From Thermoanaerobaculia bacterium (GTDB lineage Bacteria > Acidobacteriota > Thermoanaerobaculia > UBA5066 > Gp7-AA6), in contig JBBSEW010000003.1 in the NCBI GenBank assembly GCA_038239305.1, positions 51,022 through 115,021 of the forward strand: a stretch of DNA of 64,000 nucleotides. Reading direction: 5' to 3'. This document shows positions 746-59,680 of the stretch, one piece after another. How positions within the stretch are numbered: the first letter of the stretch is position 1; the number at the start of each line of letters is the position of its first letter. A program made the position numbers and the translations under genes. Below the pieces are notes generated by a model. That model ran no database searches, was not told the origin of the DNA, and saw nothing but the letters and a program-made list of their open reading frames with translations.

Positions 746-802
746 AATCGGGTGATCGGGTGATCGGGTGATCGGGTGATCGGGCGAACGATCGGGTGAT
801 CC
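746..802. repeat. 8-bp tandem array (GATCGGGT-type, about 7 units)
   Basis: Direct reading: aatcgggt gatcgggt x3 gatcgggc .. gatcgggt gatcc. GATC recurs every 8 nt. Confidence 0.9.
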
Positions 803-835
803 GAAGATGTACGGGGACCTGAAGGATCTACTTTT

Positions 836-877
836 CGTTTCCCGTTTCCCGTTTCCCGTTTCCCGTTTCCCGTTTCA
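836..877. repeat. 7-bp tandem array (CGTTTCC x5 plus CGTTTCA)
   Basis: Direct reading; perfect heptad phasing. It is followed at 881..892 by GATCACCCGATT, the exact inverted copy of 746..757. Confidence 0.95.
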
Positions 878-935
878 CCGGATCACCCGATTCGTTCTGA
901 TACCCTCGCTCTCCCTATTTGCTAAAGGATTCTGA

Positions 936-2342
936 ATGACCGACACCAAGTCTTACGACCTCTCCATCATCGGCTCCGGGCCCGGCGGATACGTCGCGGC
1001 GATCCGGGCCTCTCAGCTCGGCCTGACCGTCCAGGTCATCGAGCGCGAGCCGCGGCTCGGCGGGGTCTGCACTCTCCGGGGGTGCATTCCGACCAAAGCT
1101 CTTCTCCACACCGCGGACCTTCTCGAGGAGGCTCGCCACGGTTCCGAGATCGGCGTTTCGGCCCGCGAGGTCAAGCTGGAGATGGCGGGAGCGCAGAAGC
1201 ACAAGGAAAAGGTGGTCCGCCAGAGCTCGAACGGCGTGCAGTACCTGATGAAGAAGAACCGCGTCGACGTCACGGCCGGATTCGGACGGATCGCGGGCCC
1301 GGGACTCGTCGCCGTGAAGGCGGCCGACGGCTCCGAGACGACGTTCGGGGCGAAGAACATTCTCGTTGCGACGGGCTCGTCGCCGCGCTCGCTTCCGGGC
1401 ATGGAGATCGATCACAAGGTGATCCTGTCGTCGGACTCCATCCTGGAGCTCACGGATGTTCCGAAGTCACTCCTCGTGATCGGGTCGGGCGCCGTGGGAG
1501 TGGAGTTCGCTTCGATGTTCGCGCGGTTCGGATCCAAGGTCACGATCATCGAGGTGCTGCCGCGGATCGTGCCGGTCGAGGATGAAGAGATCTCCCGCGA
1601 GCTCGCGGCGTCGTTCAAGCGGCAGGGAATCGCCGTTTACGTGGATACGCGGGTCGAGAAGGTCACGAAGTCCGATGGCGGCGTCGAGGTCATCGCGCGA
1701 ACCTCCGCGGGCAAGACGGAGACTTTTCGCGCGGAGAAACTGCTTCTCGCGGTCGGCCGAAAGCCGCTCTCCGAAGGCATCGGGCTCGAGCAGGCTGGCG
1801 TCGCGACCGACAAGGGTTACATCCGGATCGATTCCATGATGCGGACGAGCGCCGCCGGCGTCTATGCGATCGGAGATGTCGTTCCGACGGCGTGGCTCGC
1901 CCACGTGGCTTCGGCGGAGGGGATCGTCGCTGTCGAGCATATGGCGGGAAAAAATCCGCCGGCGATCAACTACGACCAGGTGCCGGGCTGCACCTACTGT
2001 GCGCCGGAAGTCGCGTCGGTCGGTCTCACCGAGGCGAAGGCGCGGGAGCGCGGGTACGACGTCGCCGTCGGCAAGTTTCCGTTCTCGGCGGTCGGCAAAG
2101 CCCGGATCATCAACGAGACCACCGGTTTCGTGAAGATCGTCGGGGAGAAGAAGTACGACGAGGTCCTGGGCGTGCACATCATCGGACCGAAGGCGACCGA
2201 GCTGATCGCCGAGGCGGGCGCGGCCCTTCGGCTCGAGGCGACGTCCGAAGAGATCGTCCGCACGATCCACGCGCACCCGACTCTCTCCGAGGCGATGCAC
2301 GAAGCGGCGGAAGCGGTCTCCGGGCACTCGATCCACATTTAG
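936..2342 (+). CDS. lpdA: Dihydrolipoyl dehydrogenase (E3 component)
   Basis: 468 aa. FAD-binding GSGPGGY motif, redox-active disulfide motif GGVCTLRGCIPTK, NAD-binding GSGAVGVE, and a C-terminal HAHPTLSE interface motif. Confidence 0.95.
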   Translation: MTDTKSYDLSIIGSGPGGYVAAIRASQLGLTVQVIEREPRLGGVCTLRGCIPTKALLHTADLLEEARHGSEIGVSAREVKLEMAGAQKHKEKVVRQSSNGVQYLMKKNRVDVTAGFGRIAGPGLVAVKAADGSETTFGAKNILVATGSSPRSLPGMEIDHKVILSSDSILELTDVPKSLLVIGSGAVGVEFASMFARFGSKVTIIEVLPRIVPVEDEEISRELAASFKRQGIAVYVDTRVEKVTKSDGGVEVIARTSAGKTETFRAEKLLLAVGRKPLSEGIGLEQAGVATDKGYIRIDSMMRTSAAGVYAIGDVVPTAWLAHVASAEGIVAVEHMAGKNPPAINYDQVPGCTYCAPEVASVGLTEAKARERGYDVAVGKFPFSAVGKARIINETTGFVKIVGEKKYDEVLGVHIIGPKATELIAEAGAALRLEATSEEIVRTIHAHPTLSEAMHEAAEAVSGHSIHI

Positions 2343-2361
2343 GCGGCTGTCGCGCGCGCTT

Positions 2362-2394
2362 CCTCTCCCGGCGGGAGAGGGCCGGGGTGAGGGG
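2362..2394 (+). repeat. REP-like 33-nt palindromic element, copy 1 (CCTCTCCCGGCGGGAGAGGGCCGGGGTGAGGGG)
   Basis: Near-perfect palindrome CTCTCCCG-G-CGGGAGAG, 20 nt after the lpdA stop. It is 32/33 identical to 7607..7639. Confidence 0.85.
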
Positions 2395-2400
2395 CCCCAT

Positions 2401-2527
2401 TCGATCCTCCGATCACCCGATTCCCCGATCCCGCGATCAGCCGATCAAACTCGATCCTCGATCTCCACTTCACGCGATAGTTCGATTGATCGCGAGATCA
2501 TGAGATCGCGAGATCGCGAGATTCGGC
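2401..2527. repeat. GATC-rich composite repeat ending in an 8-bp array (GATCGCGA/GATCATGA)
   Basis: 11 GATC sites counted in 2401..2520. Octamer array at 2488..2523. It contains GATCACCCGATT (2411..2422), identical to 881..892. Confidence 0.9.
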
Positions 2528-2560
2528 CAAGGGCCCGGGTCCGTCCTTAGTCCGCCCTCG

Positions 2561-3190
2561 TCAGTTCGGCTTCGGCGGCGGCGGGTCGGGCATCCTCGGC
2601 GTGTCGCCGGGGTACGACTGGACGGCGCCGGGGGCGGGGTACGCGAACGTCTTGCCCTCGCGATAGTCGTTCGGGGAGGCGGGGAAGGCGAGGTTCATCC
2701 CGGGGACCTGCTTCGAGTCGACATCCGGTTGGTATTTGCGATCGGGATTCAGAACGGCCGTTCCATCCTTTCGCTCTCCCGGGCCGACGGGCGCGCGAGC
2801 GGCGCCCTTTCCTCCTGTCGCGGGGGCGGCGTCCCGGCGGCCGTTTCCGCCGGTGATGCCGATGTCCACGGCGCCGTTCGCGTGTGCGGCCACGCGCTCG
2901 GCCGAGACCCGGCGGATCTCCGACCGGCGGACGCTCACCAGCGTGCCGGCCGGGTGCTGGTGAAAAGTCACCTGGTCCCCGGTCTGGAGCGGATGATCGG
3001 AGGACCAGAGCGTGCCCAGCTGAACCGTTTCGATGCGGTAGAGCGTGACCGTTCCCGACGCGCTCGTGACGGGAGAGGCCGGTTTCGATGCGGGATCGGG
3101 TGTCGCGCCGGACGATGGAACGGCGACGGCGGCGGCGACAAGAATCGTCGCGGCGGCCGCCGGCAGAAGCTGGAAGAGCCGCGTCGTCAT
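2561..3190 (-). CDS. Secreted hypothetical protein (signal peptide, ~50-aa conserved module, Gly/Pro-rich tail); paralog of 11484..12416
   Basis: ORF 2561..3241; ATG at 3190 gives MTTRLFQLLPAAAATILVAAAVAV. The module LYRIETVQLGTLWSSDHPLQTGDQVTFHQHPAGTLVSV aligns with the 11484..12416 product. Confidence 0.6.
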   Translation of the reverse strand: MTTRLFQLLPAAAATILVAAAVAVPSSGATPDPASKPASPVTSASGTVTLYRIETVQLGTLWSSDHPLQTGDQVTFHQHPAGTLVSVRRSEIRRVSAERVAAHANGAVDIGITGGNGRRDAAPATGGKGAARAPVGPGERKDGTAVLNPDRKYQPDVDSKQVPGMNLAFPASPNDYREGKTFAYPAPGAVQSYPGDTPRMPDPPPPKPN

Positions 3191-3294
3191 GGCTGTTTCC
3201 CAGTATACGCGCGCGGCCTCGGGACACCGCAGTCGGCACACCGTTCGCGCGTTCCACCGGAGGGGAGAAGAAATAGAATGGCGGACCGTCCATC

Positions 3295-4461
3295 ATGAGC
3301 ATCATCCAGCCGCCCGACCGAGCGGAGACGGATCTCTCCGCGCTGCGGATCCGACGCGTGCCCGAGAAATCGGGTGGCCGCGGATGGATCCTCATCCTCG
3401 CGATCGTCGTCGTGGCGATCGGGCTCGGCGTCTATTATTTTGCGGGCCGGTCGTTGCGCCCTCTCAAGGTCGACGTGGTCACGGCGTCCGTCGTTACCGA
3501 GGGCCAGGCGACCACCGTCCTGAGCGCCACGGGATACGTCGAGGCGGAGCGCAAGGCGGATCTCTCTCCCAAGATCACGTCCCGCATCACCGAGCTGAAT
3601 GTGACGGAAGGCTCGCGCGTCCGGAAGAACGACGTGATCGCCCGCCTCGATCATACGGACATCGACGCGCAGCTCGCGGAGGCGCGCGCGAACTGGGTCA
3701 ACGCGCGGGCCGATCTCGCCCGGCAGCGCTCTCTGCAGGAGCAGGGTCTCGCTCCGCAATCGACTCTCGACGTCTCCGTCTCGCAGGAGTCGGCGACGCG
3801 GGCGCGGGTCGAGTACACGCGGGCGCTTCTCGACTACACGGAGATCCGCGCTCCCTTCACCGGCGTCATCACCGCGAAGCGCGCTTTCGTCGGCGAGGCG
3901 GTGTCGCCGTTCGGCTCGTCGCCGTCCGGCGGCGGGTCCGGCGGAGCGATCGTGACGATCGTCGAGTTCTCGAGCCTCTACGTGGGCGCGGACGTCAACG
4001 AGTCGAACCTCTCGCGGCTTTCGCCCAACCAGCCGGCGGAGATGTCGCTCGACGCCGTTCCCGACAAGATCTACCACGGCCATCTCCGGCAGATCGTTCC
4101 GGCCGCCGACCGCCAGAAGGCGACCGTCCGCGTCAAGGTCGCTTTCGACGACGCGGACGACAGGATCCTTCCGGATCTTTCGGCGCGCGTCTCCTTCACC
4201 TCCGAGGCCACGCAGGGGAAAACGAACCGGTCGCGGATCCTGATCCCGAAAACGGCGATCGCCGCCGTGGAGGGAAAGTCCGGAGTGTTCCGCATCGTCG
4301 AGGGTCGCGCACGATTCGTCCCCGTGCAAACGGGCGGAGAAGTGCAAGGGCAGATCGAGGTCACTTCCGGTCTGCAGGGCGGAGAGAAGATCGTCGCGTC
4401 TCCCGGTCCCGTGAAGTTGCGGGATGGCGACCGTGTTCGGGTCGATGGGGAGAATTCGTAA
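3295..4461 (+). CDS. Efflux transporter periplasmic adaptor subunit (HlyD/MacA family)
   Basis: 388 aa. N-terminal TM, coiled-coil region (DAQLAEARANWVNARADLARQRSL) and beta-barrel regions typical of membrane fusion proteins. It is the first gene of the ABC operon. Confidence 0.85.
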   Translation: MSIIQPPDRAETDLSALRIRRVPEKSGGRGWILILAIVVVAIGLGVYYFAGRSLRPLKVDVVTASVVTEGQATTVLSATGYVEAERKADLSPKITSRITELNVTEGSRVRKNDVIARLDHTDIDAQLAEARANWVNARADLARQRSLQEQGLAPQSTLDVSVSQESATRARVEYTRALLDYTEIRAPFTGVITAKRAFVGEAVSPFGSSPSGGGSGGAIVTIVEFSSLYVGADVNESNLSRLSPNQPAEMSLDAVPDKIYHGHLRQIVPAADRQKATVRVKVAFDDADDRILPDLSARVSFTSEATQGKTNRSRILIPKTAIAAVEGKSGVFRIVEGRARFVPVQTGGEVQGQIEVTSGLQGGEKIVASPGPVKLRDGDRVRVDGENS

Positions 4462-7572: not shown

Positions 7573-7606
7573 AAAGCCGCCGGTCTATTCCGGCGCCGCG
7601 CTTCCC

Positions 7607-7639
7607 CCTCTCCCGGCGGGAGAGAGCCGGGGTGAGGGG
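7607..7639 (+). repeat. REP-like 33-nt palindromic element, copy 2
   Basis: CCTCTCCCGGCGGGAGAGAGCCGGGGTGAGGGG, 35 nt after the permease stop. One mismatch to copy 1, and the shared upstream GCGCTTCC context is also present. Confidence 0.85.
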
Positions 7640-7689
7640 AGCTGTTCCGACAGGAGCGCCGGCCTGACGCTTTACAACCGAGAGCAAGA

Positions 7690-23746: not shown

Positions 23747-23790
23747 GGGAAACGGAAAACGGGAAACGGGAAACGACGACGGAAAACGGG
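23747..23790. repeat. 7-bp tandem array (GGGAAAC/GGAAAAC, reverse complement of the CGTTTCC family)
   Basis: Direct reading. It fills the 67-nt spacer between the subunit IV and subunit III genes. Confidence 0.9.
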
Positions 23791-26228: not shown

Positions 26229-26290
26229 CCGTTTCGTCCGGTCCTTCGCCCTCCGATACGATCGCGACCGTCTCGACAACCCGATTTCCA

Positions 26291-26349
26291 GATGACCAGA
26301 TGACGAGATCGATCGCGAGATCACGAAATCATGAGATCGCGAGATCGCC
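26291..26349. repeat. 8-bp tandem array (GATGACCA, GATGACGA, GATCGATC fragment, GATCGCGA, GATCACGA, AATCATGA, GATCGCGA)
   Basis: Direct reading. Same family as 2488..2523, 48923..48986 and 59359..59398. Confidence 0.9.
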
Positions 26350-26384
26350 TCTGAAGCGCTGTGCGGCCTCTTGAAACGACGACC

Positions 26385-40256: not shown

Positions 40257-40337
40257 AGCTATCAGGTATCAGCTATCAGCCACTCGTTTCCCGTTTCCCG
40301 TTTCCCCGGGCTTCGTTCTCTCGTTCTCTCGTTCTCT
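40257..40337. repeat. Three adjacent arrays: AGCTATC/AGGTATC x3, CGTTTCC x3, CGTTCTCT x3
   Basis: Direct reading (40257..40277, 40285..40305, 40314..40337). Together they fill the convergent spacer between mutL and 40342..40977. Confidence 0.9.
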
Positions 40338-48922: not shown

Positions 48923-48986
48923 GATCTCGCGATCTCGCGATCTCATGATCTCGCGATCGATCGTTCGATCGTGGGATCGGGTGATC
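48923..48986. repeat. 8-bp tandem array with GATC in phase (GATCTCGC x2, GATCTCAT, GATCTCGC, GATCGATC, GTTCGATC, GTGGGATC, GGGTGATC)
   Basis: Direct reading. This is the reverse-complement orientation of the 2488..2523 array. Confidence 0.95.
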
Positions 48987-49018
48987 GGGAACTTCGATCG
49001 CGGAATGCGGATGCCGGG

Positions 49019-59358: not shown

Positions 59359-59398
59359 GATCTCGCGATCTCATGATCTCGCGATCGATCGAACTATC
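59359..59398. repeat. 8-bp tandem array (GATCTCGC, GATCTCAT, GATCTCGC, GATCGATC, GAACTATC)
   Basis: Direct reading. The reverse complement of 59359..59398 matches 2476..2515 with one mismatch over 40 nt. Confidence 0.95.
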
Positions 59399-59680
59399 GA
59401 GTTGAGGAGAATCTGGAGGCGCAATAGACCCCGGCTCGCCCGTAACGAAAGTCTCCCTGGAGCCCGCCGCCGGCGGAGCCTCCCTTCCGAGGCCATGAGT
59501 GAGGGAGCACACCGAACTCGAACTATCGCCTCTCGGCGAGTGCGACCGAACGACGAGCGGCGGCCCGGTTCTCCTCGAGCGGCAAGGCCGACGCGTGCCT
59601 CGGGAGGGAGGCGTAGTCGGCGGCGGGCGGATCGGCGGCGCTCACGCCCTTTCCTCGATATCCCGGCATGGTTCGCAAGA

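Follow-up and report, generated by a model that had tools for sequence, protein, structure and literature searches.

Phased GATC octamers in an acidobacterial genome: a probable copy of a modular, dispersed intergenic repeat

Introduction

What kind of element is a short intergenic tract in which GATC recurs in 8-nt steps, and does such phasing indicate a methylation system? The question is raised by a 64,000-nucleotide stretch of a Thermoanaerobaculia genome (C3:51022-115021; hereafter, the window), in which an earlier note, made from the sequence alone, had described positions 2401..2527 as a dispersed REP/MITE-like element (MITE, miniature inverted-repeat transposable element) defined by clustered, phased GATC, the Dam/MboI-type recognition tetramer. 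The genome (G000) is a metagenome-assembled genome (MAG) of an uncultured soil acidobacterium, spanning 3.80 Mb in 109 contigs at 66.9% G+C and rated 81% complete. REP, BIME, BOX, STRR, and other short dispersed repeats were described decades ago; to our knowledge, most are without a proven function or copying mechanism.

With moderate confidence, we favor the reading that the tract comprises two parts, modules B and A, from a single copy of a dispersed repeat that is modular, non-coding, and non-autonomous. The element is probably best understood as a lineage-specific relative of known bacterial intergenic repeats, one that would work like BIME, BOX, or REPIN elements. Module A has been copied as a unit into ~190 spacers of G000, and such spacers are short or empty in congeners. 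Copies are extragenic and biased to gene 3′ ends, their modules follow a directional order, and they persist across species.

A three-module composite in a convergent spacer

The GATC density that drew attention to this tract was readily reproduced, with all 11 sites in 2401..2520 recovered (2403, 2411, 2427, 2435, 2443, 2453, 2460, 2488, 2496, 2504, and 2512). Given a window mean of 11.2 GATC per kb, the Poisson probability of at least 11 sites in a span of this size is 1.5e-7, and 0.01 such spans are expected per 64-kb window. Tandem repeat detection (TRF) assigned period 8 to 2409..2447 and 2488..2522, and the 3′ part of the tract is the octamer array that had been described (GATCGCGA GATCATGA GATCGCGA GATCGCGA). 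The reported relationships among copies also hold: the 40-mer at 2476..2515 is the reverse complement of 59359..59398 with one mismatch, and 26311..26349 and 48923..48962 are variants of the core that it contains.

Some details of the earlier description required amendment. The GATC sites from 48923 were said to lie in strict 8-nt phase; in 48923..48990, spacings of 8, 8, 8, 8 and 8, 8, 8 are separated by one 4-nt step after the fourth. The left part of the tract does share sequence with other sites, but 879..891 reads CGGATCACCCGAT, one mismatch from CCGATCACCCGAT, and the inverted match placed at 48977..48989 is present with its coordinates shifted by one base. More consequentially, a dispersed element does occupy this locus, but 2401..2527 does not delimit it. 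The tract consists of module B followed by module A, two of the three modules of an A-B-C composite that runs on the minus strand from 2526 down to 2352 (Table 1). Module A begins ~34 nt past the stop codon (2561..2563) of the gene at 2561..3241 and is co-oriented with that gene; module B appears on the plus strand as a C-rich CCGATCAC array.

Genome-wide anatomy of the repeat

Searching the whole assembly with a 20-nt core anchor (GATCTCATGATCTCGCGATC, up to two mismatches) retrieved 194 copies of module A, 193 of which align ungapped to a single consensus (tcGAATCTCGCGATCTCGCGATCTCATGATCTCGCGATCaATCGAaCTATCGA...ATCGggg). The genome-wide search that the earlier note had proposed therefore yields further copies in abundance; its "at least four near-identical copies" captured the repeat nature of the element and fell far short of its number. 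Its judgment that this is more than a microsatellite was sound, the family being dispersed, high-copy, and intergenic.

Module A is ~50–55 nt long and directional, comprising, in order, one to four GATCTCGC units (most often two), a single GATCTCAT unit, another GATCTCGC, GATCAATCG, and a decaying (AACTATCG)n tail. Two units before the CATG-containing unit and one after is the pattern of 75 copies; across all copies the number before ranges from 0 to 4, and the number after is almost always 1. The single CATG unit holds its position in 127 of 176 copies, and the 35-nt core is perfect in 64 copies and carries one mismatch in 32. Variation in unit number is limited to the run of identical units, which suggests that this number may change by replication slippage.

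Three further modules accompany A. Module B consists of GATCGGGT arrays of the form AGAATCGGGTGATCGGGTGATCGGGTGATCAATCAGGGGAATCGGGTGATCGGAGGATCGG (~130 copies, or about 111–161 depending on method), module C is a hairpin (GCCCCTCACCCCGGCCCTCTCCCGCCGGGAGAGGGGGAA, ~100 copies), and module D is a heptamer array, (CGTTTCC)n (~115 copies). Modules that adjoin point the same way and follow the order A>B>C> (or D>), and module D seems, from its placement, to be an alternative terminal module. Module A forms either the 5′ end of composites (A-B-C and A-B-D) or the outer ends of inverted doublets, A> <A, of which there are 14 among short-range pairs compared with none in the opposite arrangement. It stands alone at ~95 loci, about half of its copies. 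The junction GATCAATC, which follows the arrays of both A and B, suggests that the two share common descent. These modules belong to a genome rich in short arrays: of the 355 period-8 arrays detected by TRF, 340 are intergenic, and a further 199 intergenic arrays are heptameric, with many families represented.

The repeats also affect the assembly. Contig ends hold 30 of the 194 copies of module A and 26 of the 106 of module C, making these repeats a main cause of assembly breaks. One break (the start of contig C69, with a possible partner on C29) corresponds to an A> <A doublet that is intact in a related metagenome contig (L035).

Copying into spacers that are short or empty in relatives

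Counted by its core, module A occurs 164 times in G000, four times each in the congeners G012 and G013, and not at all in 38 other relatives. Among 185,579 species, the exact 28-nt core was found in only two other genomes, MAGs labeled Thermoanaerobaculia and Acidobacteriota. The core of module B is distributed otherwise (111 copies in G000, 31 in G006, 26 in G009, and 2 in G012), and hairpin C occurs in 12 of the 17 genera of the order. These differences imply that A, B, and C have separate histories and meet in this species.

The locus itself illustrates how spacers have been filled. lpdA and its convergent neighbor are syntenic in 13 of 14 congeners (G004 gives a weak match only). Among the 12 congeners with both genes, the spacer between them measures −4 nt (overlapping stops) in G013 and G014, 18 nt in G010, and 51–161 nt in the rest, compared with 218 nt in G000. 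Elsewhere in the window, across 25–60 kb of conserved gene order, spacers that carry modules are likewise short or empty in G013, G014, and G009. The spacer before lpdA, for example, measures 215 nt in G000 compared with 52 nt in G013, and the spacer holding the 26288..26349 copy measures 132 nt, compared with at most 30 nt for its ortholog in G013 and G014.

The array family in the lpdA spacer, with units of 7 or 8 nt, differs in almost every species and is frequently arranged in inverted pairs (loci L011–L023). Examples are CAGTTAT/ACTGAAA in G006, GGCGGTA/CCGCCTT in G008, GGTCAGA/TGTCACC in G002, and GGTAGTC in G012, and the content of this spacer turns over faster than the species diverge. 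The (CAGTTAT)n array of G006 (L014) reads (TAACTGA)n on the opposite strand, a heptamer described from Beggiatoaceae, cyanobacteria, and Bacteroidetes, where its direct repeats are abundant (PMC4679880). G000 carries five arrays of the TAACTGA unit and several of the near variants AAAACTG, AACTGAC, and AACTGAG.

Copies of module A also persist across species. G012 and G013 share one at an orthologous site just upstream of a glgA-like start, where the core is identical at 35 of 35 positions beside flanks of 78% and 70% identity; the corresponding site in G000 holds other arrays, not A. Additional comparisons came from 15 metagenome contigs carrying the exact core. Two of these (L045 and L046) are G012 loci, and the other 13 derive from related species whose flanking genes are 74–83% identical to those of G000. 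Since these contigs were found by exact core match, the G000 side alone of each comparison is unbiased. About six to seven copies on the 13 contigs match an A copy at the orthologous G000 site, and at four shared sites a perfect core lies beside unalignable spacer. The G000 copies on contigs C23, C18, and C17 have perfect cores in comparison with relatives of 74–82% flank identity, and a private tail variant common to the C17 copies indicates descent rather than re-insertion. Two G000 copies at shared sites have decayed, and about six metagenome sites have no A in G000, including one where the spacer is an empty 24 nt. The consensus is the same in at least five species.

A selected core as an alternative

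Such persistence raises the alternative that the core of module A is a selected cis-element. As a candidate binding array for a sequence-specific DNA-binding protein, nucleoid-associated or topology-related as on BIMEs, it would present four to five octamers with GATC half-sites at 8-bp pitch, four units spanning about three helical turns, and copies would be kept because they are functional. We regard this explanation as worth weighing but rather unlikely. The unchanged G012 and G013 cores, the perfect cores on C23, C18, and C17 beside spacer that can no longer be aligned, the consensus held by at least five species, and the fixed place of the CATG unit all speak for selection. So does the distribution of mismatches, which among 176 cores are ~3-fold rarer at GATC positions than at others, although much of the non-GATC excess falls at CGCG/CATG positions, where units differ among themselves. 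Yet 12 of 14 congeners lack any copy, so no conserved cellular process depends on A, and G000 has other arrays where G012 and G013 have A. About half of the sites are not common to related species, and two shared sites have decayed. The apparent perfection of the relatives' copies is biased by their exact-match recruitment, gene conversion among ~190 copies could also keep the consensus, and no candidate protein was found.

A more specific version we hold more tentatively still. Here, the 35-nt core would consist of four to five GATC-centered octamer sites that a putative protein of this Thermoanaerobaculia subclade reads at 8-bp pitch, independently of methylation, and it would be selected to remain letter-perfect at orthologous gene ends while the spacer around it is rebuilt. 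If this were true, the different 7–8-nt arrays that fill the same tiny spacers in each species of the genus would reflect an active, shared process of building or using arrays rather than passive slippage.

Location relative to genes and a possible RNA-level role

Genes were called with a codon-bias scorer made for this analysis (2995 genes, 87% coding), on which all context statistics depend. Only 2 of the 194 A copies lie inside called genes. Convergent spacers hold 67 copies compared with 26.5 expected by base share, a 2.5-fold excess (p 4e-14), and divergent spacers hold 19 compared with 43.5 expected, a 2.3-fold deficit. The 5′ end of A is the gene-proximal end in 148 of 162 cases (p 2e-29), the median distance to a gene being 59 nt from this end and 236 nt from the 3′ end. 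Stop codons outnumber start codons by 71 to 11 within 60 nt of the 5′ end, and some copies begin 4–6 nt past a stop. In tandem spacers, A is sense in 31 cases and antisense in 45, which argues against an mRNA-strand rule. Module C is internal or 3′ in composites. On the simplest reading, A is the 5′-terminal module of a directional composite dropped into spacers of a few bases, an insertion that would leave its outer end abutting a gene.

Two observations accompany this pattern. The polarity of module D is the reverse of that of A, with the 3′ end of D the closer to a gene in 82 of 102 cases (median 33 nt). TAG is the stop codon of 39 of the 84 genes with an A copy within 60 nt of the stop, compared with ~27–31% among genes with long 3′ spacers and 22.5% overall, a real but modest effect; overlapping convergent CTAG-type stops, as at lpdA in G013 and G014, may be a preferred ancestral site. 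CTAG itself is strongly avoided in G000 (603 sites, second-order Markov observed/expected 0.29), and TCGA and AGCT are mildly over-represented.

Module A and its partners could also act at the RNA level, as elements of 3′ untranslated regions in which A> <A doublets and the C hairpin serve as bidirectional terminator-like or mRNA-stabilizing stems. The 71 co-oriented copies just past stop codons, some by only a few nucleotides, and the excess in convergent spacers fit such a role, and GGGNATC heptamer repeats, which are mostly transcribed, show the same geometry (PMC4692102). Folding separates the modules. Two tested doublets form long hairpins far better than shuffled sequences (z −4.6 and −5.1), and the C hairpin reaches −24.8 to −27.5 kcal/mol (z ~ −2.1), whereas module A by itself is no more stable than shuffled sequences (z −1.09 and −0.91) and the whole spacer at the locus gives no significant fold on either strand (z −0.45 plus, −1.7 minus). 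The tandem-spacer orientations follow no mRNA-strand rule, and neither a promoter-like site nor a U-tract terminator was found in the locus spacer. Rfam, which covers curated RNA families only, returned nothing at gathering level at the locus, and two far sub-threshold matches are attributable to chance. We consider an RNA-level role improbable.

GATC phasing and the methylation question

GATC occurs in G000 at the expected frequency (40,444 sites, second-order Markov observed/expected 1.03), with densities of 10.6/kb in coding and 10.4/kb in intergenic DNA. Its arrangement is another matter. Intergenic GATC pairs number 1138 at a distance of 8 nt, 733 at 16, and 411 at 24, compared with ~45 at neighboring distances, making GATC the top 8-nt-phased tetramer of intergenic DNA. 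Clustered, phased GATC is thus a genuine hallmark of the element, as the earlier note held, and the comparison of densities agrees: period-8 arrays carry 88.9 sites per kb and the remaining intergenic DNA 8.5. In all, 21% of intergenic sites occupy 2.5% of intergenic bases. GATC is present in 270 of the 340 intergenic octamer arrays, chiefly in arrays of the A unit (144) or of the B unit (95), but in only 1 of the 199 heptamer arrays of the same niches. It marks two related octamer families, not repeat arrays generally, and its positions within units are 96–99% invariant.

This clustering could be taken for a Dam/SeqA-type or restriction-linked cluster, with phased GATC as the methylation target of a hemimethylation-sensing or GATC-cutting protein. 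That GATC is the most strongly phased intergenic tetramer, is concentrated in few bases, and marks the best-kept unit positions accords with such an arrangement. However, neither a Dam-type D12 methylase (PF02086), an N6_N4 methylase (PF01555), or a C5 methylase (PF00145) nor the GATC cutters MutH/Sau3AI (PF02976) and DpnII (PF04556) matched in the 81%-complete assembly, with control genomes positive; SeqA (PF03925) was not searched. GATC is neither over-represented nor denser between genes, and heptamer arrays in the same niches do without it. Four GATC at 8-nt pitch, which occur 343 times in G000, are absent from 32 of 40 relatives. SeqA pairs GATC sites on the same helix face, and an 8-bp spacing places successive sites on different faces. 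The Dam/MboI interpretation is therefore not supported: with a series of independent negative searches and an unbiased GATC frequency, a Dam system is unlikely in this genome, although the incompleteness of the assembly could hide one gene, and we judge a methylation- or restriction-linked cluster very improbable as an account of the tract. The phasing would instead be inherent to the octamer unit, where GATC shares bases with the palindromes TCGCGA and TCATGA, and is not read as a methylation target given the lack of GATC methylase, MutH/Sau3AI, and DpnII genes. Dense, phased GATC alone does not indicate a Dam system.

Least credible of all is that each array arose in place by slippage as an independent local microsatellite, without copying between loci: unit numbers do vary, octamer and heptamer arrays of many families abound, and every congener fills the same spacer with a different one, but the order CGCG, CGCG, CATG, CGCG, GATCAATCG, tail recurs at more than 100 loci and in several species, a non-repetitive order for which slippage alone is insufficient, which refutes this explanation for module A.

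Proposed spread and the evidence against it

If, as we favor, the tract is part of one copy of a non-autonomous modular repeat, its spread would depend on machinery supplied in trans or on recombination or gene conversion between copies. The skew in location would then reflect tolerance, with insertions that split promoters being lost.

Several results weigh against this account. No mobilizing enzyme was identified, as Y1/RAYT (PF01797) is absent from the incomplete G000 assembly, and none of the six Y1 loci that we read in congeners (one in G012, three in G013, and two in G006; L051–L056) has an adjoining A, B, or C. In filled and empty pairs (L034 compared with G000 C5:32962-32986, and the lpdA spacer compared with G013), the junctions are too diverged for any duplication to be read. 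The A> <A doublets have spacers of 100–220 nt whose interiors show no homology from copy to copy, in contrast to a typical MITE family. An autonomous parent element was rejected, as inward-facing A pairs enclose housekeeping genes (LOG-like, phosphoribosyltransferase, PHP, rubrerythrin, and DUF3501), although MAGs often lose insertion sequence (IS) copies and a missing parent IS is accordingly weak evidence. Perfect cores at orthologous sites, beside flanks of 70–82% identity and unalignable adjoining spacer, are more readily explained by selection or gene conversion than by a neutral selfish repeat. The incompleteness of the assembly and the reliance of gene coordinates on our own caller are further reasons for caution.

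Two vehicles were considered and rejected. Y1_Tnp proteins (IS200/RAYT-like) are encoded in 27 of 41 genomes of the clade, in 1–10 copies, and in 11 of 14 congeners with or without A. They are roughly 300–330 amino acids long with a long C-terminal extension, and one orthologous copy is common to G012 and G013. A RAYT link fails because G000 has no Y1 gene and because, in congeners, the Y1 loci that were read have no modules beside them and the genes occur without regard to A copy number. A phage vector was set aside, the A core having 0 matches in viral contigs.

Comparison with known repeat systems

Named families were compared by their features; "works like" is meant here and not membership. 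The label "REP/MITE-like" holds insofar as the element is dispersed, high-copy, and intergenic; it falls short of what defines REP families, a palindromic unit and a flanked RAYT gene, and of what defines MITEs, a readable duplication, a conserved interior, and a parent IS.

High copy number, extragenic location, and ordered, oriented modules characterize BIME- and BOX-type repeats, and all are found here (A 194, B ~130, and C ~100). Like the bacterial interspersed mosaic elements (BIMEs) and REP repeats of Enterobacteria, the family has hundreds of extragenic copies, mostly at gene 3′ ends, in a mosaic of short modules that includes one G+C-rich hairpin (here, C). In contrast to REP units, which are short imperfect palindromes folding as stem-loops, A is a phased octamer array with no fold of its own; C alone is such a hairpin. 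A RAYT would be a single-copy Y1 gene flanked by its own repeats; G000, at its 81% completeness, has no PF01797 match, and the six congener loci are unflanked.

REPINs are inverted doublets, and the 14 A> <A pairs, with none in the reverse arrangement, resemble them in forming long hairpins of one polarity (Bertels and Rainey 2011, PMC3116915; PMC3337134). REPIN populations also persist at orthologous sites across species (PMC3116915; PMC3337134), as do A copies. Unlike REPINs, A occurs mostly as singlets (~95 loci) or in A-B-C composites, its doublet spacers are long, unrelated, and unconserved, and a cognate Y1 transposase is lacking. The BOX elements of Streptococcus pneumoniae, boxA-(boxB)n-boxC, share the modular, directional build with a variable number of internal units, the ~100–200 intergenic copies, and the lack of an established mobilizing agent (Croucher et al. 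2011, PMC3049150). They differ in being apparently of unrelated sequence; the present modules are built of 8-nt tandem units, each with its own species distribution.

Repeats with 7–8-nt units offer another parallel, namely, cyanobacterial STRR, the GGGNATC repeats of Xanthomonas and Nostoc (Rehm et al. 2015, PMC4692102), and TAACTGA (MacGregor 2015, PMC4679880). These are likewise non-coding tandem units, rarer between divergent genes and lying near the ends of open reading frames (ORFs) (PMC4692102; PMC4679880). As in simple sequence repeats, which are intergenic head-to-tail arrays of 5–11-nt units, TRF finds a period of 8 at the tract; unlike a uniform array changing by local slippage, A has an order and tail common to >100 loci in several species. 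It also departs from STRR/GGGNATC repeats in its fixed, non-uniform order, its unique tail copied between loci, and the invariant GATC of its octamers. Lacking G-tracts, A would form no quadruplex. Module B, (GGGTGATC)n, is by comparison a G-tract repeat in the style of STRR/GGGNATC and looks like the octameric equivalent of the GGGNATC quadruplex repeats already described. In 27 of 35 tandem spacers, its G-rich strand lies antisense to the genes on either side (p 0.002), and 58 intergenic canonical quadruplex motifs in G000 are made of GGGNGATC or GGGGAATC units.

Two systems are less similar. Dam-associated GATC clusters (Escherichia coli oriC, the dnaA promoter, and SeqA binding; pap-type switches) show a comparable local density, ~10 times background, but they occupy one or a few loci, whereas here ~190 copies are dispersed at 8-bp pitch, with no Dam, MutH, or GATC restriction gene found and no origin context. 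MITEs (e.g., Correia/NEMIS and RUP) are also small, non-coding, and high-copy, and some copies here are bounded by inverted terminal A modules. MITEs, however, have terminal inverted repeats at both ends, which only the 14 doublets possess; most copies are one-ended, with composites ending in C or D, and interiors are not homologous. No target-site duplication could be read, and no autonomous IS with the same ends was found: housekeeping genes lie between inward A pairs, a weak argument where MAGs lose IS copies.

Other features of the window

The window holds three further module A copies and several partner modules (Table 1). The copy at 26288..26349 is antisense to both of its plus-strand neighbors, with its 5′ end facing the start of the gene at 26361. 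The copy at 48923..48990 lies ~21 nt past the TAG stop of an upstream plus-strand ABC-ATPase-like gene, and the short form at 59359..59400 sits in a long spacer upstream of glnA.

The gene downstream of the composite was taken to be 2561..3241 (minus strand), which is conserved. The ORF at 2547..3395 on the same strand is the longest there but was rejected as an Arg-rich shadow frame. The protein of 226 amino acids encoded at 2561..3241 is 50–66% identical in congeners, falls in no Pfam family, and has a secreted or lipoprotein-like look.

Table 1. Repeat modules and related features in the 64-kb window
Feature	Position	Strand	Basis or detail
Convergent spacer, 218 nt	2343..2560	.	Between lpdA (936..2342, +) and gene 2561..3241 (-)
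Module C, REP-like G+C-rich hairpin CCCCTCACCCCGGCCCTCTCCCGCCGGGAGAGG	2352..2398	-	Begins ~10 nt past lpdA stop (2340..2342)
Module B, degenerate copy	2401..2465	-	GATCGGGT-type octamers (G-rich strand), ending ...GGGGAATCGGGTGATCGGAGGATCGA; fits B consensus in alignment of 8 A-B-C composites
Module A (source of the 40-mer in the earlier note)	2473..2526	-	Sequence; consensus of 193 copies; unit order
Module A tail	2473..2487	-	AATCGAACTATCGCG
Module A core	2488..2522	-	Minus strand: ATCTCGCG ATCTCGCG ATCTCATG ATCTCGCG ATC
Module A, second copy	26288..26349	-	Variant core, plus strand GATCACGA AATCATGA GATCGCGA GATCGCC; tail CCAGATGA
Module A, third copy	48923..48990	+	Core 48923..48958; continues into GATCG.. 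and GATCGGGT units
Module A, fourth copy, short form	59359..59400	+	One GATCTCGC unit ahead of GATCTCAT; tail GATCGAACTATCGAG
Related block in spacer before lpdA	746..892	+	Module B array, GATCGGGT x4-5 at 746..802
Module D (CGTTTCC)6 in block before lpdA	836..877	+	Sequence
Inverted B unit in block before lpdA	881..892	inverted	Sequence
Module C hairpin, second copy in window	7600..7645	-	Convergent spacer, 117 nt here and 7 nt in G014
Other module D sites	23755..23775, 40285..40306		

Significance

For those working with MAGs, repeats of this kind have a practical consequence: in high-G+C genomes they create spurious ORFs, in addition to breaking assemblies. For the study of intergenic repeats, the module A family is unusually clean, combining a simple 8-nt unit with a fixed unit order that reveals copying. 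Congeners differ ~40-fold in copy number, and a single genus offers filled, empty, and differently filled orthologous sites, with a core that remains perfect across species. Together, these features make selection, gene conversion, and transposition separable.

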